Positions 9,903 through 52,797 of a stretch of 64,000 bases of DNA are shown piece after piece. The stretch spans positions 3,317,600 to 3,381,599 of the forward strand of contig CAJINV010000003.1 in assembly GCA_905178155.1 (NCBI GenBank), written 5' to 3'. Position 1 is the stretch's first letter, and each line of letters opens with the position of its first letter. The notes under the pieces were generated by a model. The model was not told the origin of the DNA and ran no database searches. It saw only the letters and a list, made by a program, of their open reading frames with translations. The stretch comes from Amoebophrya sp. A120. Taxonomy: Eukaryota; Protista; Dinoflagellata. Both the position numbers and the translations under genes were made by a program.

Positions 9903-10194
9903 CAGCATGCGCTTCCTTGACCAAGAAAATACAATCGCGACAGTTTGTGGCATCTTCGCTCTTTCAACATTGCGTCTTCTCTCAGATGATGAGCATTCTG
10001 CTCAGATTTACCCGGCTTGCCACCACAGGAGCAGCGTTTCCCTCGCACGGCAGACATTCGAAAAGGAAAAGCGAACGTCTCGGCCCGAGCACTATAATGC
10101 ATTTTTCGCAAATTCATGCTCGGGCGCCCTTTCGTCGCTTGTCTTGCCACTCTCCAGTGCCACGGTCAATGATGATGGCGATTTATTAGTTTGA

Positions 10195-15293: not shown

Positions 15294-18200
15294 GCGGCAA
15301 ACCCAACTACCTATGTTGGGCTGTGTTTTTGGTAGTCGTTTCGTGCTTGTGAAAAAAATGATCGCGCCCGCAATGAGCAACAGAACTAGCTGAATGCCTG
15401 GCGGGGATGGAGGATGCGCGATCCCAAAGATGGCGAGCGATTTCTCGCCGGCTGTCGACTCGTGGGAGATCAACGGCTTTCTCCCGCCGGCTGTCGACTC
15501 GTGGGAGATCGATCGACCATCCGACGCCTGCCGCAAGAACGGCGTTGTGGGCCGGCTTTCGCCTCCGGAAAGAAGCGCAGCTGCTGCGCCGTTCCTATTC
15601 TCGTTGCCGGAGTCCGCCGTGGAGAACTCGATGTCCTGGATCTTGCACGGAATCTCCACCAAGTCTGCGGATACCTTCTCCACCGGCTGGAAGTGCACTA
15701 CGATCTTTTTCTTCGATCCCGGGGGCACGTGACCGCAGGACGGAACAAACTTCAAATTCGGAGTACTGGAGCTTTCGGCCGCCTCGGCGGACAACGCGAA
15801 CGGCGCAGGTAGTGTCTCGGGAAACTCGAGCTGCGCCGTTTTCTTGCTCCCGTTTTTGAGGTAGATAATCTGCTGCTTGCGGCTACCCACCGGAAGTTGT
15901 CCGATCCCGAGCTCATCCGGGGGCGCGGGTGGCCGCACCCCGGCCTGACGACCGCCGTCTTTCAACGGATATGGTGGGTCAAAGGGTGAAATTTCTGGCG
16001 ACAAATCCAAGTCCAAAAGCTCGTCGTCGCGGCCGGACTGGTTCATTAGGTCCCAACACACCTCTTGCACGTAGCCCTCGCCCTTCAATGCAAGCGTCAA
16101 GTCTTCGAATGGGTTGTGGATTGTGAACACCCGGAACTTCTGCAAGAAGTAGGGGAGCTGTACGCCGTCATCCGGCAGGCTGATGTCACACGGGTGGAAC
16201 TTTGTCGTGAACTGGTAGTGCTTGCCCGGCTCCAGATTTATCGTGCGCGGACAGATCACGGAGAAGGGCGGAATAGTGTCAGTGACTGCGATGCCTTCCT
16301 CGTCCAGGATCTCGCAGCGTGCCGTCGCGGGTATGATCCCGTCATTCTGCTGCAGGCGGAACCGAATTTGATGCTCGCGACCGAGCTGCAGCTTGCCAAA
16401 ATCAAACTGTTCGTCTGTTAAAGCGCGCATCTCGAACGTCAAGTAGTTGCTTCGGTGGTCTGTTCCAGTTCCTTTGGTGAACTTCGCCTCGAATATTACG
16501 TAATACGTCTGCAACTGCGGTGGGGTGAGCGACACGGTGACGTACCAGTGCTCGTGCGGCGGAATGACCAGCTGCGCGGGATGGATTTCAAATGGAAAGT
16601 CCTTTTCGCCTGCCGCGGATCGCGGTTTCACGCTGATATTGACCTCACATGGAATTCCGCGCGGATTCGTGATTCGCAGCCGCTCCTTCTGCGGTTCTGC
16701 CCCGCCGGCGAGACAGGGACCGAAGCTGAAGACCTGATCCTCCTCCGCGTAGCAGCGGATATCCACCCGACCGGCGGTGGCAAAGGCGTCCTCGAGGTTG
16801 CGCGCGACGTACTGCTCTTCGACGAGGGAATCTCGAATCGAAAAATTGTGCTTCGACAGCTTGTACGCCTCGTCGCGGTCGAAATCACGAACGATCTGCG
16901 GCGAATACACAATTTGCCGCATCGAGGGCTGCGGCAGCCTCGGGTCCTCGGGCACGCGTGGTGCGGGCATCATGTCCTCGTGGTCCAGCAGCGCAGCCCG
17001 ACTCTCCTTGTCGTACGGAAGCGGGTACACCGAAACCAGGTGGAAGTGCTGAAACTCCATGTTTAACAACACGGAATGCTGGCTGTGCGTGGGCGAGCTG
17101 CCGTTGCTGGATTCCGCTCCTTGGGACTTGTTCCTAGCCTTCGCGCCCGCTTTCGTGGCGTGCCTCTTCTGCTGCTCGGGCGCCAGCTTCTGGAACTCGG
17201 CGTGCTTCACGGCGTTGACTGGATGGATCGTGTCCGCAATCAGCTGCCTGTGGAAGTCGAAGCACTTGGGATTCGCGGGCACATTGATCTTGTTCTTCAA
17301 AATCTCCAGCTCCGCCTTGCCGGCTTCCAGCCGCTGCTGCAGCACCGCCAGATCGCCTTCGTCCCCGTGATCTTCATCCGCCAAGCTGGTCTGCACTTTC
17401 GTTTCCAGAGCCGTCATTTCGGCCTGCAAACTCTCCGCGTCCTTCTCGATCTCGACCTGCCGCGAGTCTAAAAACGCGTGGAAATCGGTCTCAAACACCT
17501 CAATGTGCTTCGCCTCCTTCGCTTCCTCGTCCAGCTCCTGGTCGGCGACCTTGTTTTGAACATCCGCCCCGCCCGCGGCACCCGCAACATCTCCTGGGTT
17601 GTTGTCTGCTTCGTTTCCCGACATGCCTCCGGTGTCCTGCTTGGGAGAGCGGTGGCTCGGTTCCATCAGGAAAAACCGAACCCGCTCGTCGAGGAGGAAC
17701 ATCACCTGCAAAGCGCTCTCCGGAGTGAGGTATTCGATGGACGCGTCGAAGCAGTCGAGGATGAAGCCGGTGTTGAAGTCGCACAGCGCGAGCCGCTTCT
17801 TGACGATCTCTGCAACCACTTCCGGGTCCAGGTCGTAGATCGGGAGCGCAGCCGCGACGTCGTCGTCGGCGGGGGGTTTGATGTCGTGCGACAGGAGGAT
17901 GCTCTTGTGCGCGATCTGCGCCTGGTACTCCGCTTTCGCCGCGGGATCCGTCTGCCACAGTTGCTCCCGCTCCGTCATCGTGGCCCGCACCTTGTCCACG
18001 AACTCCTCGTCCAGCAGGCCCTTCGCGCTGCTCGACACCGCCCAGTCCACGCACTCGTCGTTGGAGAGAAAGCCCCGCTGGTTGACCGCCGCGCGAATCT
18101 GGTTGGCCCACTTCGTGTATGAGAGTGCACAACTCCTTCTCCCCCTCATTTGCATGGAATGAATAGCAATACAAACACCAGCAGACGTGGAGCCAGTGCA

Positions 18201-19689
18201 TGACAAGTTCCTGACTAGTGTAGTACTGTTTCAGCTTCCGTACTTTGTCAACATGCAAACCGTGCCACAAGGAACCAACTGGAATTGGGATTTTGCATGA
18301 CAAATGAGGAAGAGGGGGAGTTATGCATACTGATATCGTGCGCCCGGAGCGCTGCGGCCCGTGGATCACCACGTTCTCGCGGAACTTCTGCGGCACCCGG
18401 TTCGGGAACTTGTCCTCCTCCAGACCCAGATCCAGCATGGCCGAAACCTTGTAGTCGTGCTCCGTCTTGATCACAGGCTTCTGGCACATCAGCGGCTTGA
18501 TGTTTTTCGGGTCCTCCCAAAGCCACCCCCCCCCCCCACAGCCACAGGTAGTAGTCGTTCTGCTCCTCCATGGTGGAAATTTCGTCCGGGAACCACGCCC
18601 ACGGGAGCTTGTCCGGTTCCTCCTCGAGCTCCTCCGGGTCCAAATTCTCTCCTTCAAGAACAGCCACTCGCTGTGCCAGAATTCCTGCACCTTCGTCAGG
18701 AACTGCTTCTGCAGCTCCGCGATGGCGATCTCCTTCTTGCCGCCCGTCGTGTTCATGGCGTTCGTGTCGTTGTCCTGCTTCTTCTGCAGCAGCTCGTCGT
18801 CGTGCTCCTGCTTCCGGGCCAATCGGGCGTCCTGGTGCTCTTTTCGCTTCTGCTCCTGGTTCCACGTGTCGATCACGTCGGGCCACGTCACCGACATGTC
18901 GGACCGCAACGAAAACTCGGAGTACTTGTAGAGCGGGTCGTGCTCGTAGATCTCCAGCATCTGCTCCTCAAGCCGGTACTGCTTGTCAAAGTCGGTGCTG
19001 TGGACCGTGATGGGGTAATCGTTGGGGTTTTCCAGGTAGATGCCGCGCAAACCTCGCGACGGAGTAACAGGCAAAGTGCATGTGCGAGCGTTGAAACGTC
19101 TGGCGGCCCAGCTGCAAGTGCGGTATAGGTATAGCAGTCGTCTATACGAGTATCGGGCCGACTGTCGGTGCTTCTTCTTCTGCATTTCACGCTTCCGCGC
19201 AACAAGCTTCCACTCGAGGCCACTGAGCGGCACATTGGAAGGAAGGTGGAAATCGTATACATCACCGAGGACGATAGTTCTGCTTCTGTCGCGTACAGCT
19301 TGGTGTTGGCGGGTTGTCGCGACGTCTGGACGCCCCCGGCTGTCTCGCCAAGTGTACGCATCCACACACGCGAAGAGGTCAACGGGATGGTGGTGGACAC
19401 AAGATAGATGTACTGCCAGAGTTGCGATGACGCACCAAAGTGCGGTGTCGCGCTCACGCTTCCACAATTTCGATGCAGACCTTTGACCGGAGAGGGCTGC
19501 ATGGATAGCGCGTCGGGGAGCACGGTAGGAATTTCCCATGCAGAGCCCCCGCCATCTGCAGTGAAGAAAAACCTTGGCCGAGCTCCACCAAGAAAAGAAT
19601 CTCATCGTCATCTGCCAAATCACCCAGCTGCAGGGACGAGGAAGAAGAAAATCCACTTCTGGACCATCTTCGAATTGCAAGGCGGACAC
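15294..19689 (-). CDS. HYDIN: HYDIN-like central-pair protein fragment (P-loop/adenylate-kinase-like region plus ASH/Ig domains), interrupted by an introner
   Basis: ENPNDYPITVHSTDFDKQYRLEEQML, VVIHGPQRSGRTKWA (after introner removal), IVKKRLALCDFNTGFILD, FSFGPCLAG, NPFEDLTLALKGEGY, FVPSCGHVPPGSKKKIVVHF resemble HYDIN blocks. Only part of a full-length HYDIN is present. Confidence 0.7.
15441..15510. repeat. 39-bp-period tandem duplication at the HYDIN/unknown-protein junction
   Basis: cgccggctgtcgactcgtgggagatc occurs twice (ISHESTAG x2). Confidence 0.8.
18118..18335. mobile_element. Introner/MITE family A (218 bp) in HYDIN-like gene
   Basis: TSD tcgtg both sides. TIR tatgagagtgcacaactccttctccccctcatttg ... 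caaatgaggaagagggggagttatgcatactgata. Removal restores GPQRSGRT-KWANQI. Confidence 0.92.
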
Positions 19690-20533: not shown

Positions 20534-22186
20534 TTATTCCGCGCGAAGGGACGCTCGAGTGCCGGACTGGCAGCCTTCCATGAAGCCAACGCGGATGCTT
20601 TGCACGGCACCAAGAACTTGCTCGGTGGGCACGCTCTCGGCTGCGTGAACCGTCTGTGCCCGAACTTGCGCGAACCTTTCCGGATCGTAGACCTGTGAGA
20701 TGCATTTGTTGTGCTTTTCCATCTCCTGAAACAAATTTTGGGTCAATGCTACGCGAGAGGCAATCGCTCGGCTCTACGATTACGAAAGAGTAACTCATAT
20801 ATATGAAGTGCAGAGAAACTGTGTTGCTAATACCGCCACGCCTGCTGTGCCGACCACCGCTAGGATGATGAGGAAGATGAGCCACCAGATCATCCCGTAC
20901 AGCAGCGGGACAAGGAAGTAGGAACCGAGGATCAACAAAACGACGTCCAAGTGCAGGTGCTTGTCTTCTGGGACACCCATTTGCGAGTACTTATCGCGGC
21001 GCTTGTACATCACCACCGTGTAAGCGTGGCCGAGCATCTGGCCCTGGTTTCGCAACATCGTTTCTGCCATTTTGAGGAATTGGTTTTTTGTGTTTGTGAA
21101 TGCAATGCAGCGAATGATATGATACACGAGGTAATGAGAATGCAGGTATGTTCGACGGTAAGTTCGGTTATCGTTGTACTTATGTCACACAAAAAGAAAC
21201 AAGAGCGACGAGGTTGTGCGTGGAAGGTTTTTCCGACACTGGAACCTGCGCTGAGAATTGGAATTTGGTAGCGACATCGCCGACAATTTTGAGAATCCGG
21301 ATGATGAATGAACTCACCGATTTCAAAATGAATCGCGATGTTTTATTCACCTGCCTAAGTGCCGATGCTGTCATATGTGACATTCACATTTGTCTATAAC
21401 ACTTTTTCACCGATGATGCAGTTATTATGTGTCCTTGACCGACTTAGCTGGCTGGTGACTGTGAGGGATGCGCACCACGAATGGCTTCGGTCACGGACCG
21501 AGAACTATGGACCGATATTGCACGATACATTTCTGATGTATGTACTCCTGCCGAGTAATTGACGTCCGGTACAGCGAACAAGGTACTACATCGCGGTAGA
21601 TTTTTTCCACTCAAAAAATGTCCCAATACTGGCTATTGCTTCAAGTAGACACACACTCTCTTGCAAGTAGCACGGTTCCTACATTTCGATTTTTTTCACG
21701 TCCTTCTTTTCAACAGGTCGAAGAGTGGGATGGAGTGCTTGTCTCGAAATGCCATGTATCGAAAGAAAAAAGTTTGTCGCGATCACTCATGGGCATTTTT
21801 GCAATACAAAAAATGCCTGTCATGCGCAAAAATGCATCACAGCCAAACTTCATAAGGGATTTCCCTTGTGTTTCTGCAATGCAAGGAAAAGCTGTGATGC
21901 TAAAAAAATTTGTAATGCAAAACTTCCAAGGTAGTGACTGTGACAAACTTTTTTCTCTCCATACCATGTACAGGAAGGGCACTATCACCCCTGCACCCAC
22001 TATGAGCACGCCCAGGAGCCATCCTCCGTAGTGAAGCCGCGGCGTCAACAACGCTTTTTCGTAATCCATTTGCTCCGCGACCGTGTGATTGGAGGAAAAA
22101 TCATACGCCGTGCGCCCGTGTGTTGCGTTTAGGCCTCGTCGGCGACATTGATTTTGTTGTAAAAAAAGCAAGAACGCACGACACCT
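20534..22186 (-). CDS. Multi-exon hypothetical membrane protein(s); structure not resolved
   Basis: Coding-like blocks with TM segments (GWLLGVLIVGAGVIVPFLYM; VVLLILGSYFLVPLLYGMIWWLIFLIILAVVG) and a terminal block TQNLFQEMEK...RAE*. Internal exon joins are uncertain. Confidence 0.4.
21757..21963. mobile_element. Introner/MITE (207 bp)
   Basis: TSD ccatg. TIR tatcgaaagaaaaaagtttgtcgcgatcact ... agtgactgtgacaaacttttttctctccata. Removal gives PFLYM-AFRDKHSIPLFDLL. Confidence 0.85.
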
Positions 22187-26960: not shown

Positions 26961-29537
26961 TCATTTCGCTGCGCCTGCGGGGAGGTATTTGTCGAGTTTG
27001 CTCTTTAGTGCCTGTGCGATTTCTTTTTCTCTCGGGCCGTCGAGCTGACAGTCGCGCCAGTCCGACCGGTCCATGCAGTCCAGGCCCGTGCAGATGACGT
27101 CGCGCGCGAAGTTCATGGGTATGCGCCCCGGGCCGTAACACACGTAGCGATCGATCTTTTTCCCCTTTGCCGTGTTGTCCCCCGGCAGCTCCAGATAGAG
27201 GTAGGTCATCTGTAGGAGGCTCTGCAAGTTCCTCTCCGGTTCGTTCGCGAAGAAGCGGTTGGCGTTCTGGCTCAACAACTTTGGCAGCGCGGTGCTGGGC
27301 GGCTTCGCGTCGCCGTAGGGGTCGACCACGTGAGTACTAGTGCCATCCTGGTCAGCACCTTCCGGCTGCCGCCCCGTTTCAGGGTCGATGATGACGCTGC
27401 CCAACCGCTCGAACTCGAGCCCGTTCTGTTCCGCGAAAAGGTCCAGCGTGCGGGACCAGTTGACGTACCGCGACCGCGGGATGGGCAGCAACTGCACTTG
27501 CATGTGCGCCATCTTGGTCGGGATCCACCGCTCCCAGACGACCATATCGCAGGGGTCGCGGTTGGTCCGCGGGTCCAGAAACATCTTGCGGATGGCGCTG
27601 ATGTATGCATTGCAAAAGCAAAAGTATCGCACTCGTATAAATGCATTACAAATTCTCTCAGCATGAGAAATAAAATTTGTAATGCAGATTTGCCTTGGGA
27701 ACAAGATTTGTAATGCGAGACTTGCATTTATACGAGTACGATGCTTTTGCACAGGATATGATGTAGGTCTCGATGGAGTCCCGCAGCTGCTCGTACTCGG
27801 TGAAGTTGAAAATGCTGAGGTAGTTGGGCATGTGCTTCACGGGGCAGAGAATCATGTTGCCCTCGTTGATCCCCCCCTTCGCGGTGGCCACGTACAGGTG
27901 CGGGTTCACGGCCACCAGCATGTGGCGCTGGAACTTCGGGTTGGCCAGGCAAAACCAGCAGTCCGCGTGCGGCTCCACGACGATTTTCTTCCCCACCTTT
28001 TTCTTTGCGAGGAGGACCTGCTCCTTCTTCTGCAGATCGTCGTGCTCGCGCTGCCGCTTGTAGCTGATCTTCACCGTGCGGCCCCCGGCCTCCAGCTCCA
28101 GCTCCAGGGCTTTTTCCGCCAGCTCCTTCGACACGACCGTGGCGAACCCAAAGCCCTTACACTCGCCGGTCCTCTCGTTCACCATCACCTTGAGCCGCAG
28201 CAAACTGCCGCCGCCAAGTGCGCGTTCCAAGGCGGAGCGAAGGTTCTGTTGTTAGGGTATTTAAGTATTTTCCTTATTTTCGAAGGAGGAAATTTGCAAG
28301 GCTCTGAGCCGATAAGATGCAAAAGAGTAGCTCGAATGAGTAGAAGATCAATTTTACTAAACATCCTTTATTTGACGACGTGATTGCCGCTGGCCTGCTA
28401 CTAGCTAGCAGCAATGATGGAAAACGAAAATGAAAATCAAGGAACATGAAGCTAAGATACGTTTTCTGACAAACCGGCGGTCAAATTGCTGAGGAACAAC
28501 TCCACCCCCTCGGGCTGGTCGTCCTCGTCTCGCCCTCGTTTTTGCCCCCCGTCGCCGCTGCTCACGTTGTGCTGCAGTCGCTGCAGTCCTTGCAAACTAT
28601 CGCCCGCGAGGTTCTGGAACGGGAACGGCGTCGTGTTGTCTGGCTTTGTTCGCAACTCGTCCGCGGTCATCGCCCGCAGGGGCCGCAACTGCAGGGCGTG
28701 CAGCCACTTTTTGTCCTTGCCCTTGGCCCCCACTTTGCCCAGCGCGATCAGTCTCGATACGTGCTGCGCCTTCAATGTTTGGAAGGGGGGGCGCTGGTAG
28801 AACGTGTTTCCCTTCGCGCAAACGACATAGCGCGGTGCCAGGGCGGCGACCAGGTCCGAGATCGCGGACGACTCGATGTCGCCTTCCCCGACGGGCTCGA
28901 CGTCCTGTAGGTTCGGCACTTGGTCGTACACCTTGTTCTGCCACCCCTTCGGCCACTCGGAACACAAAAGCACATCCACCCCGGTTTGCCCGAACTCGTC
29001 CGCGATTTTGCTCTGCCGCTTCAGCTGCTCGACGGCCAGGCGCGTGTAGCAGGCGCCGTGGAAGGGAACGCTCTCGTCCTCGTAGTACACCGCGTTGTAG
29101 CGACCACTGAGGTACGCGACCCGCAGGCCGCCCTGGATCGTCTTCACCCCGTGGGAGCCGAGAAACACGAGTCGCTTGGTCGCTTGCGGCAGGGAAGAGG
29201 ACGTCGAAGAGGAGCTGGAGGAGGCGGAAGTCCCGGTGGAGGAGGCTGCCGCACCGAACTCCTTGCCGGCGGCGAAGCCCTCGATGAACCGCTCGCTGTC
29301 CGAGTCCACGAAGTAGGTAGGGATGTTGGGCTGCTTCAACCCGAGGAGGTACTGCTGGTTCTCCTCGGTGATATCCTCGCCGAGAAAGGAGCCACAGGCA
29401 AGCAAAAGGTCGAAGTCGCCCACGCGGGCCTGCTGCTTCCCCACCGTGTCGAACAATGTCGTGAAGTTTGCGTTCGCGTCGCCGGCGAGAAGAACTCGCT
29501 TGGTCAGATCCTGGTCCTTCTTGCTTGAGTCTGCCAT
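26961..29537 (-). CDS. CWF19L1: CWF19-like protein 1 / Drn1 (pseudo-metallophosphoesterase + RRM + CwfJ C-terminal domains)
   Basis: VLLAGDANANF, FDLLLACGSFL, PTYFVD, GLRVAYLSG, VDVLLCSEWP, FYQRPPF. RRM: LFLSNL ... KGFGFATV. CwfJ: CWFCLANP, AKGG, PVKH, WER, HMQVQLLP, NFARDVI, DRSDWRDC. Exons 29537-28461 (GT-AG intron follows), 28245-27759 (introner follows), 27598-26961. Confidence 0.9.
27604..27758. mobile_element. Introner/MITE (155 bp) in CWF19L1
   Basis: TSD tgatg. Long TIR (tgcaaaagca...tcgcactcgtataaatgca / tgcatttatacgagtacgatgcttttgca). Removal gives IETYI-SAIRKMF. Confidence 0.92.
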
Positions 29538-30492: not shown

Positions 30493-33400
30493 TCAGACGA
30501 TGTGGATTTTGGATGCGAGTTGCTGCAGTTCCCATGCGGTCGGTCCAAGCACCTGTTCTCGTAGCAGTCCCCGCAACTGCTTGACGACCCAGCCATCCAG
30601 CGGAAACTGGTGTGTTCCCATCATTTCCGCGCTCAGCTTCGTGATTTCGAACCAGTCGAGCAGGTGGATTTTGCGGTCTTTGATACTAGTTCGCGACTCT
30701 CCACTGCCATCTTCCTTTTGCTGGTAGTCCAGCGCGTTACCGGCCAGCACAAACTCCCAGCTCGCTTCGACGCTCACGCCCGCGAAGTGTTTAAAGAGCG
30801 TCAGGTCGTCGCAGCGGGCTTGCAATTTGAAGGCCAGATGCGGTACGTACTGTGTGTCGATTTTCCGACTCCCGATGGACTGCTGCACGTCCGGGTCAAT
30901 GGCGTCTTCGAACTCGGCGCTATCGGCCGACGTCACGCTCGTAGTGTTCAGGGGATCTGCCTCGAGCAACGCAGTGCGTGCCCGCCGCACGCCCCTGGCC
31001 AGGCGGGTAGAACCAAAGAGAGTTTGTTCATCGTCCTCCGCCTGGAGCAGGTGGTCTCGGTTCTTCACCCCGGCAGCAGCAGTTGACATCATATTTTGCC
31101 CCGCCCCGGTCACCCCATGACCATAGTTGCGTCCGCCGGCGACGCCCGGCCGGGCGCCGCTCGCCTTGTCGCCGTATCCGTTGCCAAAAGCCAACACCAT
31201 CTCGTGTGCGTGCGTCCAGTAGCAGGCGAGATCTAGCTCTTTCAGCAGCAGATTGGTCACTTCTAAAAACCCGGCGACGAATATGACAGTGCACAACCTC
31301 CCCTCCCCCTCATTTGTAGTGCATGAACAGCAATCGAAACACCGGCACACGTGGAGCCAGTGCATGACAAGTTCACTCGCCGTCTGTAGTACTGCTTGGG
31401 CTTCCGGTATTTGTCATGCTTAACAGACTGCGCAACTCAAGCCCGGGGGGGGTGCGGGATTGTGGATTTTGCATGACAAATGAGGGGGAGGGGGAGTTGT
31501 GCACTGTCATAACGAACTGGGGAAAGCCGATCTCGATCGTCATCTTTCGGTTCGTCTTTTCTTTCTTTCCACTGGTTGCTGTGTCTACCTCTAGAACTTG
31601 CAGCTTCATGGGCGGAAGCTTCTCGCGGCAGTCCACGCCTAGAGTGCACTCGTTGCTTTGCAGGGGCCAGTCGCGCAGGTTCCAGGCTACCAGGTGTTCT
31701 TCTTCTACTTGTTCCACCTGTTGGAGATTCGCGTCGTTGTCAGCGACGTGTCTTCTATCCGCCTGGTAAGCGGACGTGAGATCGTCGTCAAAGTGCTCGC
31801 CCTCGTCATCTCCTTCGCTTGACGTTCCACCACGACCCGGTGCGGACATCTTCAAGAGGGCAGCAGCTGTCGTGGCGGCGCCACCGGCCGTTTTCAGCTC
31901 TTTCAGTTTCAAAGTTCTGGCCCGCTCGGCCTCGGCCAGCACGTTCTCGACGGCTTTCTGCTTGCGCTCGTACACCGTCTCGAGCTCGTTCAACGCCGTT
32001 TGCTTCGTCGGCAGCCAGTCGCGCAATTTCGCGCCCCACCGGAGCTCTTTGGTCTGCGGAATTTGTTGCAGGATTATGGAGTGCAGCCCGTTTTTCACAT
32101 TCTCCTTGTAGGCCCCGAGAATCTGTCTGCGGATGCTGGACACCGCGTTTACCACCGCGAGCGACCCGCGCAGGCCCACGTCAAACTCAGAACTGACCGC
32201 TACGTCCGGAAGATGTTGAGGACCACGGGTCGTGCTATGGCCGGAAGTTGCAGCTCCGTGGTGCAAAGCGCGTCCCCTGTGGTCCGCGCTGTGGTGACGC
32301 CTCTTTGCCTTCGAAGCGGTCAGTCCCGCGGTGCAGCAGCCGGATGTTGCACTGCCTCTAGTAGTCGTAGTACTGGGTCTATTCATCGCGGGCGGCAGGC
32401 CCCTGGCGAGGTCCCGTCGTTCTTGCTGTCGAGTGATTCGCTCATCGATGTCAATATCCTCGTCAGCGCCGTGATCTGCAAATTTAGAAATACCAGCCGC
32501 CCCAGCAGGCTTTATTTGCTCCTTCTTCGGGCCGACGACTTTGAGTTTCCAAAACAGATCCACAACGGCGGGCGGCAAACCGCCAACGAGGTTGCATTGG
32601 AGGCCGGCAAAAAGTTCCATCGAGAAGAATTCGTCGTAGTCTGCACTCGCTGCGTAACTGTTGAAGACCACGTTGCGCTGGTTTTTGAAGAAGCAGTCCG
32701 CTTCCCCGAGCGGGATCTTGAACTTGAGACGCACGTCGGAAGAGAGGTGGTCGACGAGCCGGGAGAACGCGTGGCCGAGGATGCGGGTGCGAAGCGGCAC
32801 CTTGTAGTCGTCGATGCCCAGCTGAAAGTGCATCTCCGGGTCGCATATGGATTGCAAAAGTGTCTGGGTCGGAAAGCTTCTAAACTTGTAATGCTGACGC
32901 TAAATTCTAAAAAAATTTGTATTGCATGACCAGCAAGAGGACTCCAGTTTGTGCTACGCGGAGAGGGCATTTCTCATGCGGTAGAGGAGTCACAAAGTCC
33001 TCTCAAAGTATGTGACGCTAGAGCATGCATCACAGACATCATGGGTCATTCAAAATATGCATGACAAACCTGGCAATCTTCCAGACCCAGACATTTTTGC
33101 AGTTGATATCGCACCACTTCAGCAAGACGCGCCCGTCGTGGCCGGCTGCGTACGGCGAGTCGCGGTCAATAATCTCCGGCGTCGCGGCGAGCAGCTCCGA
33201 CGCGTCGGCCTGCTGGTGGTATTTTTCGTGGTCGTGGCTGTTGCGGTACTTTTCGCGCTCCTCGCCCGTGAGCATCTGTGCCGTTTTGTGAAACGGGTAC
33301 GCGATCGCGCGGAAGGGAAACGCCAATACCTTCTTGAGAATTTTTCGCCTCCGCTATGACAGTGCACAACTCCCCCTCCCCCTTATTTGTATAGCATGAA

Positions 33401-40842: not shown

Positions 40843-43329
40843 CTATGTCGGTGGTGGGTCTAAAACCTTGAGCGCTTGCAAGACCATGACTACAGCGCCA
40901 ACACCGTTCAAGGCGCCCATCAGCAACAGAACCACCACGGGCCAGCGGAAGTCCCCCGCGAAAAAGGCGGGCTGGTATTCAAGAAAAAAAGATTGTAGGT
41001 GTAACTTTCTTGGAGGATTAGCATGACAAATATCTCTCGCATGACAGCAAAGCCCTGTTATGGGCAGATAGTATGCGAAAACGCCCTTGAATGGATCCTA
41101 CAATGCAGGCGCAGCATGAAAGGCGCAATCAATTTGCATGTAGTTGCGCATCACATTCACAAATTTACAATAACAACTTCGTTTTTTTCTTGGATAGCAG
41201 GAGAAACATCATCAGTGTTCCGATCGCCGCGGACGTGAGTCCTATCACCTGGGAGGGGTTTTTTACCAAACAGGCCACTGTGGCCGCGGCTACCGTGTAC
41301 AAAATCGCGGATAGTAAGCGGGCCACCGCGAAGTCATGCAGTTTCTTGCGGGGGCGCTCAATGAAGCTCTGCACGCGCTCCAGGCTGGCAACATCGTCTT
41401 CGTTCCCGCGGCTTCCATTACCACCTCGGTCGCGTATCCTGTCGCCCACTGCCAAAAAGGCTCGAAGCGTCGGGTTCAAATTGATCGGAAGCGCAAACTG
41501 TGCGGTATAGTTTTATCAATTGACGACCACCGTGCTGCTACAACTACACTAAATCTGATTTTGACAATGACCGAGTGACACAAAAATCCTCGCGGACGCG
41601 ACCAAGCTGAGAACAACTATACTCATGCAATATAAAAAATGAAGTCTGAGTAAAGCAAACTGCTACAACTGTTTTAGTACTCAAATTTGTCAAGAAAACT
41701 GCTAGAAAACGACCTGTTTCTGTCATTTGTACCAAGAGAGTGACCGCCAATGCGAAGCGGCTGATTATTGCTGCTGGATCGTCAGAGTCATAATTCTTCA
41801 GAATGTCTGACGCCGTCCCTTCGCCAAAGCTGAGGTAGCCGCACACGGCAATGCCGAGGTAGAAAAATATCTGCACGAACGTGGCGGTGTAGGTCACCTT
41901 CGTGATCCGCTGGGAGGTTGGCACTTCCATCTCGGCGGCAACCGGACACACGTTCAGGTGACAGTTGTACGCGAAAACGAAGTTCTATGACAAAGCACCA
42001 CAACTACCCCGCCCCCTCATTTGTAATATTGCATGAACAGCAATACAAACACCAGCACACGTGGAGCCTATGCATGAGAAACTTATGTCCCTATTGTAGT
42101 ACTGTTTGGGCTTCCGGAATTGGTCATGCAAACAGTGCTACACGGCAGCGACTGGATTATGGGGTTGGCATGACAAATGAGGGAGAGGGCCAGTTGTGCA
42201 CTTTCATAAGTTCCCCAGAGCGATGAAAAAGTTCCAATCCAGCCGTACTACGAGGAGCTCATCTTGCAGTTTATTTTTTCATCAGACGACATTTGATTTA
42301 TGTTTTCTTCAGCAGCAAACCAGCATGAGTACGCCATCATCCGTAGTACGTACTAAGCGATGTTGACGCGGAAGTTCATTTCGACAGAACGTATACCGTT
42401 ACAAGGAAGCGCAAAGACAATTTATGTATCGAGACAACAGGTTCTTGGTCTTGCACCAAGTTACAACTGATGGAGCCTACCAGTACTACACACCAAGTGC
42501 TGAAAGGTCTTCAGAAGTTGTACCAAGTATTTGCTGCGTCACTTGTCCCGGTGTGCGTGCTATGATAAGCGCGGAGGTGTAGGCCAGACTCACGGCGCCG
42601 ATTACGCTGCAGTACTTTAGCGCGCTCAGGTTTTTTGGCACGGACAGTGGAATGACAAAAACGAGGATGCCGTAGATAATTACGGCTCGGTCGTGCAGCG
42701 CGGGTATGGTGGGCAGGAAGATTCCGGCGAGTGAGGACATGAAGTCGCCGACAAAGTTGAAATAGGCTACCTGTACGCCGAAGCCGTAAATGGCGAGCAA
42801 GCAGTCGAAGGCCCCACCGCATCCGGCGATTTTCTTCCCGACCAACTCCCCGTACTCCATGCTCCCCGTTTCTGCGGTCTTGAGCATTAGCACCTTGACA
42901 ATAAATGCGGACATCATCAGAATGCATAGCCCTACTCACTGTTTAATACATAGTAGGCACTACACGGTGTATCTGCAGATGCAGGGGTGGCACTACGATG
43001 AATAAAGTCAAAGGAAGTAAGTACTTAACACTAAGACTGTTCAATTATACCTGTATACTGTAGGCGGCAGCGAGCCCGCCAAGTATCAGCAGGAAGGCTC
43101 CAAGGCCCATGCCGGTAAGGCGCATGGCGTAGGGTAGCGTCAGCAACCCACCACCGATCGCTGTGGAGGTGAGCGCCAACACGGACTGCCGTACACCTCC
43201 GGAACGCAGCGGTCGCCCAAAATTGTGTCGGAAGAAATTCGGTCTACGCACCTCCGAATAGGCGAATCCTTGCGCTGCGACAATCGGAGAGACGTCTTCC
43301 ATTTGTGTTGCTGCGGCGGTGGTCGTCAT
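40843..43329 (-). CDS. Amino acid/auxin permease (AAAP, SLC38-like) transporter
   Basis: STAIGGGLLTLPYA, YFNFVGDF, IPLSVPKNLSALKYCS, FVFAYNCHLNVCP, GYLSFG, ILKNY, MFLLPAFF. Three GT-AG introns and two introners. Confidence 0.9.
40976..41196. mobile_element. Introner/MITE (221 bp) in AAAP gene
   Basis: Imperfect TSD gctgg/gcagg. TIR tattcaagaaaaaaa ... tttttttcttggata. Removal gives LMMFLL-PAFFAG. Confidence 0.85.
41986..42208. mobile_element. Introner/MITE family A (223 bp) in AAAP gene
   Basis: TSD agttc; family A TIR and interior. Removal gives IALGN-FVFAYNCH. Confidence 0.93.
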
Positions 43330-44778: not shown

Positions 44779-47700
44779 CTATTGGTATGCCAGACTGTCC
44801 TGCTTGCTGTTGCTGCTACTCTGCCCTACAAACGAGTTGGAAGCAGTTGTCGTTGTTCTTTCCTCCTCCCAATGGTAAGAACGATCCTTGCCGCGGCCTT
44901 TCCCGCCTTGTCGTTTGGTGTAGTTACCATTGTTGTAGCTGCTTCCGCCCCCACCGCTTCCCCGCTCATTATTGTTCCAGTTGCTTCCGCCATTGTGTGT
45001 ACCGCGCGCACCGGTCGATGCCCACTGTAGAGTAAATTCTCATTCGATTGAATCATGCATCACGAGCACGACCTGTTGCTGGCTAGAACGCAGCAGAAGC
45101 GAAACAGGGTTGATAATGTCCACCGGCATCACAGCGCGGTTGACTTATTGAGCTTGGGACTGTTTTACTTATATCACATACACAATTCAGTATAATTCTT
45201 CGCACAAGAGGAAGAAGAATGGCGATTACCTCATCCCGGCCCGCCATTCTGCGCTCTTCACGGGCCGCGCGCCTTTCTTCGCGGTTCCCATCTTTCCCAT
45301 TCCCTGCTTCGGAGCCATACCTGCGAAAGATTCTCTATCTTCCCATTGATGTTTTTCCTAACACTGGGCGCAGCCAGATTCGCTATTTCTTAGCTTGCAG
45401 ACAGAGACACCAGGCACGGACTCTTGAATTAAAGCTGCGGAGTACAAGAAGAAAAAGTATAGCACAGGTATAAATTCTACCACTGCTACCCAATTTATTG
45501 CTTTGTACCTGCTGTGGTTCGGTGAGGGTCGCTTCCCACCGAAGTTGTCTCCACCTTTGCTTGAGCTGCCGCCCGTGTTTGGCAGACTGGGTGGGGGCAG
45601 TATGTTGCTGTCGGCCTTGTAGGAAGATCCGTCGCCGAAGTTCGAGGAGGTACTGCTGCTCCCGCCATGGTTGTAATCACCGGTCTTCTGCGAGGCCGTG
45701 CTAAAGCTCGACGATGGCGGTAGGCGTGCGCTGTTGGGCGGTGGACTGCCGGTGAGCTGCGAGGATATTGAGTCCATAGGCAAATGGTCCGCCGACAGGC
45801 CGCCGCCAAGGCTGCTGTTGTATTGCGAGGACCCGGACGCAGGTCCTCCCACTCCGCCGCCACGGTTGCTGTCGCGGATATTATTGCCTCCCTCCTTCGA
45901 GAAAGCCCCGAGTTTACTTGTGTTACCGGGGCCGTGGTGTGCCGCTCGTGGGGGCTGGTTATAGCCTTGTTGCTGTACATAATTGTTGTTCATCACACCG
46001 TCACCACCCATGTTTGCGCTCCGCCCATACTTGCTCCCGTCGCGCGGCTGGTCCCCTGGCATGTTGAAGCCATAGTGCTGGTTCCCGTTGTTCCGGCCGA
46101 ACTCATTCTTGTGTTCCTTGTAGTTGTTATAAGACGTCGCATTATTGTTGCTGTTGTAGTTACCGCTCCCATACCCGTTGTCGCTGTTCAACATTTTTAC
46201 ATCGGCATTCCCGGAGTTGTTTTGCATGCCTTTGTATCCTATGCAAAAAACCTCGCATAACTGCTCGTCGACATTGTAATATTACCGCACTACCGGTACT
46301 ACCAATTCGTAAACCAAACTCTCATGCGTTGCCTACTCATTCGCTGCATGCAGGACACATGCCCTTTTTGCTGCCAACATTTCTCCTCGATCAAGTAGTT
46401 GCGATTCGCTTGCATTGGATACTCTGCCATTATTTCCCCCGCCTGGGTTGTTCATCATTTGGCCTCCGTGGTTTGACGGGTTGTTCAGCAGAAACTGGGG
46501 GTGATCCCCTCCGCCATTTCGGTTCGACTGAAAGTTGTTTCTGTTGTTCGGCGGAAAGTTTGGCTCATTCTGTGGTCCTCGCGGGGGCGCATTGTTGTAG
46601 TCGCGGTCATGCTATGCATCTTCGCAAACATGTCAGGGACGGGAAAAGAGCAAACTACATTCAGGTACGCTGCGCTCACTTCGAATACCTACGATGCGTC
46701 AACAGACAGTATCCACCTCGCGGATAGTATCTGCATACTAGCGTCGTAACCTCATACGTATCAATTCCTGCCTTTCATCAAGTATAGACCCAGACATGTG
46801 TAAGTACATTACCAGTGGATACACGCAAACGCTGATGCTCGTTGTATGTCGCCGAGACACCGCCTGGAGCAGGGCCTCCATTCCCTTGATGATAGTCGCC
46901 CTTGTAGGACGCCATGTTCTGCTGGTTTCCGTAGTTCTCGTTTTTGTTGTTCCATCTTGCACCTCCACCACCGCCAAGGTGTTGCCCGGGAGGTTGAAGA
47001 TCCTGATTGTAACTGTTTCCTGCTCCGCCTCCGCCCGGCCCACCTGAGCTCCCGCCCCGGGACAGCATACCGCTGTTGTTGCCGCCGGGGTGCTGATCGT
47101 AACTGTCGTAATTCTCCGCGTGGTTGCCACCTTTGCCCGACCTCTTCATACTATTTGCAGATCCTGCGCCAGAGGACTCGGGGGGGTTCAAGGCCTGTTG
47201 CGCGCGCAGGGTGGCACGCTCGGGGTGGAAGTAGCTCCGTTCGGTTTCAAAGTCGGGCGCGTAGTACAGTTCGGCGGACGGCCCGGAGCCCCACGTGACC
47301 GGCTCGCGGTCCGTCAAAATCGCAAATCGCTCCATGCCGCCCATCACCTCGAACACACGCCCCGCGTTATCAAAAGGGAAAATCCCCCCTCCCCATATCA
47401 AAACGAAGCCTCTGATGCTGGATTTGCGTACACAAATCAGATTTGTCTTTCTAGAGAGGACTGCAGGCCTATGCTGTGCCTGAGTGGGGAGGCTCTGGGC
47501 TAGGCGCTAAGCATGGCAAACGTCTAGTCTGTAGGGCCAACAGCATCACAAACCGCTTGCAGAATGCGGCGGGGCCTGCGGAGTTGCGTTCTTGCAAGAC
47601 AGAGACGATTTGTGGTCACAAATCAGCATTGCAAATTTTCTGAGACGTGCCTTTCCGATATGGGGAGGGGGGACTTTTCCTTTTGATACGCGTCCGGTTC

Positions 47701-50700
47701 CTGCCATCCCTGCTCTTCATTCACAAACGTGACGAGTTGCAGACAGTCCTGCGGTATCAACTGTAAAAGTGTCTGGGTCTGGAAGATTGCCAGGTTTGTC
47801 ATGCAGGTTTTCTATGACTCATGAGGTCTGGAATGCAGCGCCTAGCATGACAAACTCTGTGAGATCTCTAGCATGCCTATCCTGCATGAGAAATTCCCTT
47901 TCAACTTGGTAAAAAACGACGGCTGTTGGTAATCACGCAACACAGATTGCTTGCATGATTCAGATTTAGCATGACAAGTTCCATCCTCCCAGACCCAGAC
48001 ATTTTTGCATTTGATATGCGGCCCGATGTAGAAGGACGCGCCGCCGTCGGTCGGCGGGGATTCATACCGCTCCACCGGGTAGCCCCCCTGCCGCACTATC
48101 GGATAGCCGTACCCATAAAACGATGTGGTGGAGCCGTCTGTTCATCCAGTTTCGTATATTTAATATCGTTGAAAGAAAATACAACTCAAAGGGATGAAAT
48201 ATCACTTCGTATCAAAGGAGAGAACAACAAGGAGATCATGAACATCAAACAGTAGAAGAAGCAGGTGACCACGAGTCGGTGCCTGTGGCGGCCTCGTCCA
48301 GGGTACTACAACTTCAAAATTACAAATACCTGTTTTCTCTTTATCGATGGCAGCTTTGTTGAATTCCCGGTACTTTGTTCGCTCCCAATTTGACCCGAAC
48401 TCCTGCAACACCTCGTTGCGCTTGCGCGGGTACGCGCCGCCCACAAACGAGGCTGGATTGGTGGTCATGTAGATTCGCCCGGTCCGCTCGTACTCTTCCA
48501 CCTGTTGGTCAAAGCCTTGTGGCAGGCTGGTAGGCGGGTAGTACCTGTTGTGTCGGGAAACAAATGGTGCATCTTCGTCGTGCACAGAGATGATCGCTGG
48601 TTTTCCAGATGCGGCACAACAAAAGTAAAAAACCACGGGGACCGTGTTCTCGACACAATCTACCACAAGTCGGCTATCAAAAGCTTCACGACTTCTGCCA
48701 CTTTTGGAATAGCTCCCCTCTGGAGCAAAAGCATGTAGGCAGAGACGAGGACCCTAGCTTGATAAAATCTAGATACATCGAAAAAATACAGTCGCAATTG
48801 CATGTTTCGGCGAGGTATTCACTGCAAATATGTCTCGGTCTGGAAGAATGCAAGATCTGTAGCGCTCAACTCCTGACTATACTCCCAAATTCTCATGTAC
48901 TGCGTGTTCGTGTTGCGGAATAGCGCTGTTTCTGTGTCATGTATAAAAAGGAAAAGCAGTTTAGCCAATGTGCTGCGCACCACAGGACCGCTCAAAACAA
49001 AATGTGTCAACATGATGCTTGGCTTCATGCTCATACTCTGGCCACTTTGTCAGACAACTTTCCAGACCCGCAGATATTCATTTGCAGTAGATAAGAGGGC
49101 TTTTCATGATCTCTGCTAGCTCGTCGTCTTCGTCGGCGCCAAGAATTGTGAGGAAAATTCCCCCCTCCCCATACTCATAAAAATACGATTTGTGATGCGC
49201 GGCTTGCGTACACAAATCGAGCTGTGTTGCTAGAAGGCAACGGGACGCGCTGGCGGCCTGGGTTGCTAGAAGGCTATTCGTCACGCTATTCTGGGCAAGA
49301 CAGTTAGTCTCTGTCGTGTTGAACATGGAGATGGAGCCTGGCTGCACTAGGATCCACAACATCACTTGGCATCTGAAGACGTGACAATTGGACTTGGTTG
49401 TTCGTGTACACAAATTCTCCAGCAACACCAGTCCTCGCCTTTTGAACATGCGGAGGTGGGGGGGAATTTCCCTTACGATACCAAGGTCGGGGAAACTGCT
49501 GGGTTTGGCGCCCCAGGGCACCACGAGCGCGGGCGGGGGGTTGGGGACGGGCCGCTTGGGGCAATTGATCATCGTGTTGGCGGGCATATTGTCCTTTAGG
49601 CCACGAGGATCTGACCCGGAATGAATGCCACCCGCATGCAACCTTAAGGAAAAAAAGAAGAATCATACTTACGCGTGTGCACCTCTTCCTCTTGACAATT
49701 TGAGTCAGATTTAGTTTTAGAATTGCGACGCGCGGAAAGAAATAAACAACGACACCTCGATGGTGCGCTCCTGCTTTTTCTTGTGTCCTACAATCAGTCC
49801 TCCAAGGTGGATGTTGATGACGATATTAGAGCACCGCTGGTGGTCCCTTCTTTCCTACAGAGAATGAGGAGCGTATAAAGAAATTCATTCTGCTTTTTTA
49901 AGAATATGGACTTATTGATGCACGGTACCTCTTGCCACTCTGGTCGAGAAACCCGGATTGGTTTGGGCCCTGAGTTCCGCGGTCCCCGAAAACGGAGCCT
50001 CCGCCGTTTTGCCGTGCGCCGTAATTGTAGTAGCCGTACTCTTCGTCGCGATTCTGGTTGTAGCGATCCTGACGGCTGCCACCTTTTCCATACCCGCCTT
50101 TTTCAAAATTTCGGCGGCCGCCTCCGCCCCCACCCTTCATGTTGTTTTCGTGATATGAGGATCCCTGACCACTACCTCGCATCATGTTGTCGGAGCCGGG
50201 TCCATAGGTACTACTCCCACCACCCGGCGGATTTCTGCCGTCGCCGTGGTGTTGGTGATCTAAGCTAGCGTATGATCCGCCACCGCCATTGCCGGCGTGA
50301 TGGTATTGTGACTCGAGGTTGCTGGTCGCGTTGTACGATCCTCCGCCACCGCCGGCGGTGTTCCCGCCGCCCTGCGGTTTTCCGGAGTTGCGTCCCTTGC
50401 CGGCGTTGCCGAACTGATTGTTTTTCCCCGAATTATTGTTGCCGCCGCCAACATGCTGCTGCTGCTGCTGCGGGGGTGGTGGTGCGCCGCTGGCGGCCCC
50501 GCTGCTCGAGGTCGAGAAAGCATTGCCACCACCTCCCATGCCGTAATGCTGCTGCTGTTGGGCATTGGCATTGCCACTACTTCCACCGCCGTATTGCTGT
50601 GGTTGGCCCGGATTACCGCCGTATGAATTGTGCTGTTGCTGCCCCCCAGGGGCGTTTTGCGCCGTATTCGCGCCCATCTGGAGCTGCGGTCCGCCCGATA

Positions 50701-52797
50701 GGTTAGGCGTGCCGCTATTCGGGCCACCGGCGATGTGTTGCTGGGCACCAGACAGACTATTGTTCAGGTTGTTCCTTGATGTTGGCCCGTTGTTACCACC
50801 TGCTCCTCCGAGGTGCTGGTTACTAAGACCGCCGATGTTGGATGATGCCCCGCCGGAAGTATTATTTCCGCTGCCTCCACCAGGCACGAGCTGCTGCTGC
50901 AAAGTCTGGGGCAGACCCGAATTCTGGAGGTTTTGCAAACCTGCACCTGGAACAAAATTAGGCACGTTCGGTTGCAGTTGCGTCGTTGTACTGGGTTGCG
51001 AGGACGTCATGCCGGCATTGTTCACCTGTTGCTGAAGATTGCTAAGCCCAGTGTTTGCGTTGTTCATGCTGAAGCCGCCGTTGACACCAGCTCCTAGGTT
51101 TTGCAGCTGCCCGCCCATGACTGCTTGCGTTTGGCTTTGCTGTGGCAGGAAGGGGCTCGCATTCTGTTGCAGCATGCTCATGGAGGGGGTACCCGTTGGA
51201 GCACCTCCCGCTCCGCCAGCCATCTGCGGCTGGCCTCCGCTCGTGTTTGTAGCCGCAGCACCACCTCCTCCCAATTGTCCTGGATTGCCTACGGAAAATT
51301 GCATCCCTTGGTTGAGATTCATGAGCTGCTGCTGTTGCTGAGCCAGGCTGTTTGGGTCCATCGGCTGCATTTGAACTGCCCCGGCTTGATTATGGTTCAT
51401 GTTGCCCAATTGGAAATTGTTTGTCTGTTTGCTGCTTTGCTGTGACTGCATGTTCCCGGCGCCTCCTCCGAGGGCGAGCTGCTGTCCCGGTACGACGCCT
51501 TGCTGTTGACCGTTCATGGGCATGTTCATGTTCAACATCCCCTGGCTCACCTGCTGACCATTGGGCGTGGCAATCGTGTTCTGCTGTGGCGCTGCAGTTT
51601 GCTGTTGGAGTTGCTGCACCTGCATCTGCTGCATGTTGCCTCCTCCATTTTGACTCATTCCGGACGTGTTTAGCAGGAGGTTTGTGCCCTGCATCGGCTG
51701 TTGCTGCTGCATCTGCTGCTGTTGCATGTTCGCAACCTGTTGCTGTTGTGCAGATCCGCCCTGCTGCTGTCCCACTCCTCCACCGCCTGCACGCATCATG
51801 TTTCCACCGTTTTGTGCGTTCAGTTGTTGGCCACTGTTTTGGTTGCCAATCTGCGGACTTGGTGGGAGCTGCACCTGGTTGTTAAACAGCATTCCATTCG
51901 CCGCGAGCTGCTGCTTATCAACTGGAACTTTGTGGTCTGGGTCTGGACATTTGTCATGCCTATAAGAGATTGCGCGAGCGCGCTAAGTAGCGCTACCGAG
52001 CCCCCAACTTCTACATCTGTAGTGATTCTTACAGGCGGCGACACCCTGGATACAAATCGAAATCTCGCATCACAGCTCCAGACCCAGCCATATTTTCTGT
52101 AAAAATGCATAGTGCTGGGCGTTCGCATTCGGTTGCGGTGTCATGGAGAGCGCGTTCTGGTTCAGGTTCATCATGGCGCTTTGCTGGTTCATCATCGCCG
52201 CTTGTTGCTGTGGCTGGGGCTGCATTGGCATGTTGGCCGTGGTTTGCTGTTGTTGCTGCATCTGCTGCTGCATCTGTTGCTGCATCTGCATCTGCTGCAT
52301 CTGTTGCTGCTGCATCATCTGCTGCTGGTTTGCGGCCATCAGCATGTTCTGCTCCTTATCCCACAGAAATCCACAACCATAACAGATTCGTGTACTTACA
52401 TTTGTCTGCACATCGCGAAGAGATGCAAAACGCCAAATGGAATGAATGCCTGTTCGCGACCAGGTCGCGGCATCATGGTAACTAAAAACTCATGGCATGA
52501 CAGACTATAGACGTTTATACACATGAAAACGATGCGTGTAGAACAACATTTGCGAGCATGAAGATATGGGTGTGAGTACTACCATTCAATTGTGTACTGC
52601 TGGTTCGACATCGCAGCGCCGCCCATCATCAGACTCTGCTGTTGTTGCTGCTGCATCATCTGTTGCTGCCCGGCTGCCATCCCGGGGTTCGCCGCACCCA
52701 GCTGCTGGCTCCCGGCCCCGGCCATTTGACTGTTCCCAAACTGCCCCGAGCCGGGCATGGGAAACACCCAATTCGTTCCTGACCCATCGAAGTTCAT
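44779..52797 (-). CDS. Large low-complexity Q/N/G-rich (prion-like) protein with a central non-repetitive domain; at least 7 introners
   Basis: Poly-Q/M N-terminal half and G/N/Y-rich C-terminal half. Central block ADEDDELAEIMKSP..VVDCVENTVPVVFYFCC..YPPTSLPQGFD..FYIGPQDCLQLVTF..GRVFEVMGG..ELYYAPDF. Frames join after removing introners and GT-AG introns; the first intron and some central joins are uncertain. Confidence 0.7.
46235..46421. mobile_element. Degenerate introner (187 bp)
   Basis: TSD ctttg/ctctg. IR tatcctatgcaa ... ttgcattggata. Removal gives GNNGR-GMQNNS. Confidence 0.75.
46613..46821. mobile_element. Degenerate introner, family B-related (209 bp)
   Basis: TSD catgc/cacgc. Ends tatgca..acatgtcaggg and agacccagacatgt..gtggata. 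Removal gives HQRLR-DRDYNN. Confidence 0.72.
47368..47688. mobile_element. Introner/MITE family C (321 bp)
   Basis: TSD cgcgt. TIR tatcaaaagggaaaatcccccctccccatatc ... gatatggggaggggggacttttccttttgata. Removal gives WQEPDA-GRVFEV. Confidence 0.92.
47755..48016. mobile_element. Introner/MITE family B (262 bp)
   Basis: TSD tgcgg. TIR tatcaactgtaaaagtgtctgggtctgg ... ccagacccagacatttttgcatttgata. Removal gives FYIGP-QDCLQL. Confidence 0.92.
48816..49093. mobile_element. Introner/MITE family B-related (278 bp)
   Basis: TSD cgagg/agagg. TIR tattcactgcaaatatgtctcggtctggaa ... ttccagacccgcagatattcatttgcagtagata. Removal gives IMKSPL-RNMQLR. Confidence 0.85.
49144..49480. mobile_element. Introner/MITE family C (337 bp), stop-free and in frame
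   Basis: TSD ccaag. TIR aattgtgaggaaaattcccccctcccc ... gggggggaatttcccttacgata. Shares ttgcgtacacaaatc with the 47368 copy. Removal gives FPDLG-ADEDDE. Confidence 0.85.
51916..52111. mobile_element. Introner/MITE family B-related (196 bp)
   Basis: TSD ctgct/gtgct. Ends tatcaactgg..gtctgggtctgga and tccagacccag..aaaaatgcata. Removal gives NANAQH-QLAANGMLF. Confidence 0.85.
52357..52596. mobile_element. Candidate highly degenerate introner (240 bp)
   Basis: Near-TSD ctcct/ctgct; left end tat, right end gta; internal gcatgaca motif. Removal gives MSNQQ-QNML in frame. The TIR is weak. Confidence 0.4.

Follow-up and report, generated by a model that had tools for sequence, protein, structure and literature searches.

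About 65% of the introns of Amoebophrya sp. A120 are non-canonical (Table S4). According to the accessible part of Farhat et al. 2021, the introner elements of this organism carry an inverted repeat of 8-20 nt composed of TAT, 7 variable nt and As, have a mean length of 240 nt, and are flanked by direct repeats of 3-5 nt, given as 5 bp in the legend of Fig. S19 (PMC7789003). The A120 families of Gozashti et al. 2025 are, in the part of the data available (PMC12130899; 22 of 58 A120 rows), mostly DNA elements with TIRs and of unknown superfamily. A few of them are listed with a 5-bp TSD, and family 38 contains an LTR-integrase-like ORF between its TIRs. The true borders of the A120 non-canonical introns are masked by the direct repeat.

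Elements of the window and their anatomy

The window, the whole 64,000-nt stretch of DNA analysed here, belongs to the same organism: two exon translations match A120 proteins with 100% identity. The earlier note was thus right to connect the elements with Amoebophrya introners, and the connection becomes stronger, since the DNA is that of A120 itself. All 16 elements reported in that note were recovered on recheck with the same starts and with lengths of 155-406 nt (mean 243 nt), and the proposed TAT...ATA bounds were present at 31 of the 32 ends, the exception being the AAT start of the element at 49144. All are listed on the (-) strand. A scan for TAT..ATA with a direct repeat of at most one mismatch and a TIR score of at least 10 gave 13 matches, against a mean of 0.17 (maximum 2) in 30 shuffles. 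It overlooks 46613 and 51916 because their TIRs are weak, and 49144 because of its AAT end. The remainder of the window yielded no additional family members, the 28 ORFs scanned in it no transposase, a comparison of the family-1 end with viral contigs no match, and Rfam and tRNA searches no matches.

Four elements belong to family 1: 18118..18335 (repeat TCGTG, twice), 31282..31511 (ACGAA, twice), the long copy 33355..33760 (TCCGC, twice) and 41986..42208 (AGTTC, twice). Family 2 is represented by 27604..27758 (TGATG, twice), family 3 by 32846..33108 (TCGCA, twice) and 47755..48016 (TGCGG, twice) in opposite orientations, and family 4 by 47368..47688 (CGCGT, twice). The elements 21757..21963 (CCATG, twice), 35977..36147 (AGTAG, twice) and 49144..49480 (CCAAG, twice) also have perfect repeats. 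The claim of 5-bp direct repeats therefore holds exactly for 11 of the 16 elements, while those of 40976, 46235, 46613, 48816 and 51916 contain one mismatch. Likewise, the TIRs ascribed to all elements are poor in 46613 (9/20 in-register pairs) and 51916 (8/20).

The element ends share a consensus, with A at position 12 in 31/32 and at position 14 in 26/32. The motif GCAT[GT]ACAA is present 22 times within the elements (3.9 kb) and 0 times in 60 kb outside them. The predicted hairpins are strong (MFE z <= -3 for 12/16 elements). Predicted pairing includes TAT in 14/16 hairpins, in 13 of them with P>=0.8 at two or more TAT bases, and TAT/ATA of 46613 and 51916 are predicted to be unpaired (P=0).

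In the window and related loci together the direct repeats are near-random in composition, with 62 distinct sequences among 70 perfect ones, and no palindromic target preference was found at the insertion sites. With the host strand as reference, family 1 occurs either way round (7 versus 6 at a strand margin of at least 8). Host strands at related loci were called by a codon model with the window as its training set; of the 16 calls for the window itself 3 were wrong, all at a margin below 4. For strand-dependent counts the 22 of 97 elements with a margin below 4 were dropped, leaving 75, among which L034_1319 (margin 4.9) is probably miscalled. In the DNA run, the summed depth of element bins reached 137,429 compared to about 45 elsewhere, a value that is not a copy number.

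As in MITEs and TIR DNA transposons, the elements combine TIRs with a fixed-length duplication of variable sequence and have no coding capacity. Orthologous proteins are free of the inserts, and no empty site was seen in DNA. The elements are likely to be copies of non-autonomous DNA transposons with TAT...ATA inverted ends and 5-bp direct repeats.

Skipping of the elements in transcripts

Removal at the RNA level without GT-AG, as proposed in the earlier note, is supported by exact joints in contigs of likely RNA runs. In all eight elements with listed joints (35977, 46235, 46613, 47368, 47755, 48816, 49144 and 51916) these contigs omit exactly the element plus 5 nt. The joints of the elements with perfect repeats are 47362->47689, 47749->48017 and 49138->49481, each present in 4/4 runs, and 35971->36148, which had a depth of 225 in a likely RNA run and 0 in the DNA run. 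The likely RNA runs represent one sample; their RNA nature is a guess, with GT-AG joints and a loose poly-T end in its favor, and contigs lose rare forms. A single contig of 5938 nt spans seven elements and three GT-AG introns. Among the 10 joints listed for 46000-52330, all 7 non-canonical ones correspond to TAT..ATA elements. Each run contained one junction form, with no alternative letters at 10%.

The co-occurrence of canonical introns in the host genes was borne out by the GTAT...AG intron at 48138..48329 (-), located in a transcript shared with the elements, and by further GT-AG introns at 48545-48789, 49643-49928 and 36211-36376. With the cut shifted by 0-5 nt within the repeat, none of the 16 elements acquired GT-AG or GC-AG ends, as had been stated, and if related loci are included one of the 75 elements with a confident strand has GT/GC-AG ends. 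In-frame GT/GC-AG alternatives lie within 30 nt of 15/16 elements and are unused by the eight joints.

Among the 16 cases in which deletion was claimed to restore the reading frame, eight have contig joints that show exact removal, and a deposited A120 protein plus orthologues back it for 27604, 40976 and 41986. Protein P0001 of the CWF19L1-like (CwfJ) gene and two orthologues are unbroken across the site of 27604, as are P0004 and its orthologues at 41986 in the amino-acid transporter gene. For 18118, 31282, 32846 and 33355 the evidence is the long ORF restored by removal; with 18118, in an exon of a CFAP65-like gene, deletion gives an open frame of 1404 nt upstream and 5658 nt downstream. 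The claim finds no support at 21757, where the frame closes soon with or without the element and the upstream protein already ends ahead of it.

The cut within the direct repeat and the route of removal

Since mismatched repeats show which copy is kept, the cut can be located. At repeat position 3 the transcript carries the upstream copy in 3/3 cases. Two are known from joints, both with a slide of 2 and found in 4/4 runs: 46235..46421 (CTTTG/CTCTG; joint 46229->46422) and 46613..46821 (CATGC/CACGC; joint 46607->46822). The third, 40976..41196 in the amino-acid transporter gene (GCTGG/GCAGG; in the transcript CCTGC upstream and CCAGC downstream), is read from protein P0004, in which MMFLLPAFF reveals use of the upstream base (Leu); Leu precedes Pro in 3/3 orthologues. 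At transcript position 5 the downstream copy is kept in 2/2 cases, both with a slide of 4: 48816..49093 (CGAGG/AGAGG; joint 48811->49095, 4/4 runs, shorter side 25 nt) and 51916..52111 (CTGCT/GTGCT; joint 51911->52113, 2/4 runs). If one geometry is assumed, the cut must therefore follow base 3 or 4, and it likely falls after the fourth (or third) repeat base. This position rests on five informative elements, and both bases are retained since none of the five combines a mismatch at position 4 with RNA. A search for a homologue informative on position 4 at the related locus L033 gave no match.

A cut after base 4 would yield the donor N|TAT and a 3' end without AG. Since canonical donors in the window read GTAY in 9/10 cases (two read by eye), TAT would then match donor positions +2 to +4. 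In the position-3 mismatches A occupies the would-be acceptor position -2 in 3/3, and in the position-5 mismatches the base at +1 is not G while the other copy has G in 2/2. With the base-4 cut assumed, +1 is G in 25/75 elements, a terminal AG occurs in 4/75 and both in 0/75, which is no canonical enrichment. A spliceosome-type donor matches the cut position no worse than would the dedicated structure-guided machinery suggested in the earlier note.

The explanation that we favor, to which we give about an even chance, is a relaxed spliceosome for which N|TAT is the donor and AG dispensable, and which is helped by the terminal hairpin. A transposase would make the 5-bp duplications and insert the element in either orientation, and one cut geometry would serve all elements, the intron being N-TAT...ATA-NNNN. 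Whichever way round an element lies, its inverted ends would supply an identical donor-like TAT and an identical 3' end. The 3' cut would be determined either by the paired ends or by a set distance from ATA, with the duplication restoring the original exon, and the chemistry would be performed by a U2-type spliceosome. In the published accounts as far as accessible, A120 keeps 83/89 spliceosomal proteins (PMC7789003) and Fritillaria provides a precedent for a relaxed U2 spliceosome (PMC13326754). Against this explanation, canonical signals are not enriched at the junctions, and a donor at TAT would be hidden by the pairing predicted for most hairpins. A published excess of NT- donors in A120 (Table S4), with T at +2, was set aside as likely aligner bias. 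It is not independent, because the family counts in the accessible part of PMC12130899 resemble the mixture of placements, base-4 and mirror base-1, that would be selected by an aligner. More tentatively, and with less than even confidence, the A120 splicing activity may use no junction dinucleotide at all, reading the symmetric transposon end (TA at +2/+3) and measuring a fixed distance past the hairpin. Such an activity would tolerate any exon position and either orientation, giving transposons a universal licence to become introns, which unrelated-looking families would share by way of one end rule.

A non-spliceosomal or second-spliceosome activity could instead recognize the terminal hairpin, cut outside the stem at fixed, staggered sites and ligate the exons, as proposed for euglenids, whose introns exit as circles without lariats according to the accessible part of a review (PMC11282704). 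The strong hairpins, the lack of sequence demand at either junction, the orientation independence and the report that U1 snRNA was not found in A120 (PMC7789003, seen in part) speak for this route. We nevertheless consider it rather unlikely: 46613 and 51916 are skipped exactly despite their TAT/ATA being predicted unpaired, and it would be a coincidence that TAT resembles the local GTAY donor. Furthermore, RNase III enzymes leave a 2-nt overhang, which differs from a stagger of 1 or 3 nt. RNA-level removal with a cut anywhere in the repeat, chosen element by element, is improbable, as the five mismatch cases agree with one cut and each run has a single junction form.

The joints might also be falsitrons, jumps of reverse transcriptase over a hairpin between direct repeats. 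The data are cDNA-type contigs, and the known anatomy of this artefact combines a hairpin with a short direct repeat (PMC8240250, in the part available). This is very improbable, however, since host frames would run into stops if the element were retained, in most cases within 200 nt, orthologues are free of the insert, and three bins lying wholly within introns or elements had depth 0 in 4/4 likely RNA runs. Moreover, position 3 would be expected to come from the downstream copy after a jump at the base of the stem, the opposite of what was found in 3/3 cases. The remaining alternative is that the elements are excised, IES-like, from the DNA of the transcribing stage; IES-like excision on DNA was raised in the earlier note, and ciliate IESs share the transposon anatomy and TA-containing ends. 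The DNA run keeps the elements, which makes such excision very improbable: at about 43x, contigs 42090-47391 and 48823-52500 pass through four elements without a break, and for 35977 the joined form is absent. The DNA evidence is one run of unspecified life stage, possibly the source of the assembly, in which rare forms are invisible. This group is, moreover, not known to have a separate germline nucleus.

Mismatched repeats are common, occurring in 27/97 elements of the window and related loci, and existing genome and RNA data can therefore place the cut to the base genome-wide. A base-level cut would allow a choice between donor-mimicking spliceosomal and hairpin-guided routes and would correct gene models at element junctions.

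Comparison with known intron systems

Euglenid nonconventional introns resemble the window elements in their TIR-paired ends, TSD-like repeats, absence of GT-AG and probable MITE origin. They differ by conserved CAG/CTG at +4 to +6 and -8 to -6 and by a pyrimidine|purine junction bias, neither of which is seen in the A120 elements, and they have been shown as circles (PMC11282704, as far as accessible). The non-GT/AG introns of Fritillaria borealis likewise derive from transposons, and a modified U2 spliceosome processes them. According to the part of that work available, they prefer AG-AC and AG-AT ends, in contrast to the near-random junction bases of A120 (PMC13326754). Gozashti et al. 2025 took their element boundaries, which are variable, from annotation; the motifs of the window elements had no matches in the accessible supplements of PMC12130899, and the window families were not matched to families of that study.

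The intron class is already known: the elements are the TAT-starting, repeat-flanked non-canonical introners of A120 described by Farhat et al. 2021 (PMC7789003). They lie in the A120 genome, are removed in likely RNA, and have a TAT inverted repeat (weak in two), a 5-bp repeat and families. Singletons and GT-AG neighbors are shared as well. In the accessible part of that paper the repeats vary and the border was left unknown, whereas the repeat is 5 bp throughout the window, a length that the scan required. What the window adds is a cut narrowed to base 3 or 4, orientation independence and a shared subterminal motif, with no difference in kind.

Elements in the window

All 16 TAT...ATA elements of the earlier note were found at the starts it gave (18118-18335, 21757-21963, 27604-27758, 31282-31511, 32846-33108, 33355-33760, 35977-36147, 40976-41196, 41986-42208, 46235-46421, 46613-46821, 47368-47688, 47755-48016, 48816-49093, 49144-49480 and 51916-52111; 3884 nt summed), and in none did sliding the cut produce GT-AG or GC-AG ends. 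The 5-bp direct repeat claimed around each was perfect in 11 and carried one mismatch in the other five. A scan for TAT..ATA with a 5-bp repeat (at most one mismatch) and an inverted-repeat score of at least 10 gave 13 window matches versus a mean of 0.17 in shuffles (n = 30). The host strand was minus wherever determinable, and the hosts were CFAP65-like, CWF19L1-like (CwfJ), amino-acid transporter and unnamed genes.

The elements lie within the middle 34 kb; none was found in 1-18100 or 52200-64000, nor in the ORFs at 12453-18110 (5.6 kb) and 22670-26413 (3.7 kb). The CWF19L1-like gene (CwfJ, RRM; 26961-29537, minus strand), whose family is linked to lariat turnover, is itself split by 27604. 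Tandem arrays at 59512-59723 (12 bp, 17.7 copies) and 60970-61226 (19 bp, 12.5 copies) occupy a region without Pfam matches.

Probable removal from RNA and position of the cut

Contigs of four runs from a single sample (X3-X6), RNA by the tool's guess, behaved like RNA: GT-AG introns were skipped and one contig had a poly-T loose end. The proposed removal from RNA without GT-AG was supported by these likely RNA contigs, in which each of the seven elements in 46000-52330 was missing along with 5 nt of repeat (4/4 runs for six of them, 2/4 for 51916); the ten joints listed there comprised these seven and three canonical introns. Element 35977 was skipped likewise. IES-like excision from DNA, also suggested earlier, is unlikely, since contigs of the DNA run X1 passed unbroken through 46235, 46613, 49144 and 51916 at a flat depth near 45 and the 35977 joint had depth 0, X1 being one run, perhaps the source of the assembly, in whose contigs rare forms are hidden. 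That the joints are reverse-transcription artefacts is unlikely as well; deposited A120 proteins and their orthologues run without a break across the sites of 27604, 40976 and 41986. Exact removal of element plus one repeat, claimed to restore the frame in all 16, was supported by joints for eight elements, by proteins for these three, and by ORFs for four (deletion of 18118, 31282, 32846 or 33355 restores long ORFs that one base more or less breaks), which leaves 21757 without confirmation.

The orthologue protein P0006 of 40846-43329 carries a 16-residue insert three codons away from the position of 41986, which may reflect a short intron left unspliced in the gene model. The canonical GTAT...AG intron 48138-48329, with the 5-nt repeat AACAG at its junction and no recognisable inverted repeat, could be an aged introner.

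Mismatched repeats, numbered in transcript orientation, locate the cut. The joints of 46235 and 46613 slide by only 2 nt and take position 3 from the upstream copy, and those of 48816 and 51916 take position 5 from the downstream copy. At 40976 the upstream copy encodes Leu, as in the A120 protein and 3/3 orthologues, and the downstream copy Gln. If a single geometry holds, the cut falls after repeat base 3 or 4, giving an intron of the form N(N)-TAT...ATA-NNN(N); it is then neither flush with the inverted repeat nor placed as in an acceptor mimic of the mirror form 'ATA-N'. Cutting after base 4 would give the donor N|TAT, comparable to the canonical window donors (GTAY in 9/10). The A at acceptor position -2 in all three position-3 mismatches (40976, 46235, 46613) fits this reading weakly, and the non-G at +1 in both position-5 mismatches (48816, 51916) counts against it. 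T is second in all nine leading A120 site types of the published Table S4; we did not count this as support because the published family counts look as if an aligner had chosen base-4 placements in some cases and base-1 placements in others. In loci outside the window (L001, L017, L018, L027, L034), position-1 mismatches had T upstream and C downstream in 6/6, some strand calls being uncertain.

Mechanism

Our best reading, held with moderate confidence, is that the elements inserted in MITE-like fashion and that a relaxed U2-type spliceosome then removes them from pre-mRNA. The element would duplicate its target on insertion, its symmetric end would supply TAT as donor +2 to +4 in whichever orientation, the 3' cut would be placed by position, and the duplication would let the original exon be restored. 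Such a spliceosome has a precedent in Fritillaria (PMC13326754); for A120, PMC7789003 reports that nearly all spliceosomal proteins are present and that no U1 snRNA was found. Against the spliceosome count the predicted burial of TAT in most hairpins and the lack of preference for G or AG at the junctions. Hairpin-guided, non-spliceosomal RNA removal is a less probable alternative; 46613 and 51916, with poorly paired ends, were nonetheless skipped exactly in the likely RNA contigs, so a perfect terminal stem is unnecessary. Cuts that vary element by element, without the single geometry on which the base-3 or base-4 placement depends, seem less probable still.

Further copies and the published class

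In assembly JACKZZ01, which may not be A120's own, 36 stretches carried a match to the family-1 end and yielded 81 further elements. Among 97 elements, counted by a scan demanding a near-matching repeat, 70 repeats were perfect, 23 had one mismatch and four had two; their composition was close to random. No GT or AG enrichment was found at any placement in the 75 elements with confident strand. Family 1 lay seven times one way and six the other relative to the inferred host strand (margin at least 8), and 32846 and 47755 are of the same family in opposite orientations. Long family members (33355-33760, L016:396-806, L028:1746-2273) are enlarged internally by about 200-370 nt that match no other element.

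A common end consensus across all families, together with 22 occurrences of GCAT[GT]ACAA in the 3.9 kb of window elements against 0 in the remaining 60 kb, suggests a single transposase lineage; no transposase was found in the window. The motif is subterminal in all families, in both orientations and often 40-50 nt from the end, and is a candidate transposase site or branch-point-like signal.

Two window exon translations are 100% identical to deposited Amoebophrya sp. A120 proteins. Farhat et al. 2021 (PMC7789003) describe A120 introner inverted repeats as starting with TAT, seven less-conserved nucleotides and at least three As, with direct repeats 3-5 nt long, the published example having 5 bp, and leave border position and mechanism open. 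No publication that fixes the cut was found in a literature search that covered neither Roy et al. 2023 nor articles behind subscription. The class itself is already known, and the mismatched repeats make the border and mechanism question directly testable with existing data. The link to known Amoebophrya introners drawn in the earlier note holds: since organism, TAT ends, repeats and mean length match what Farhat et al. give, the 16 elements are a local sample of the published class, averaging 243 nt against 240 nt for A120 non-canonical introns.
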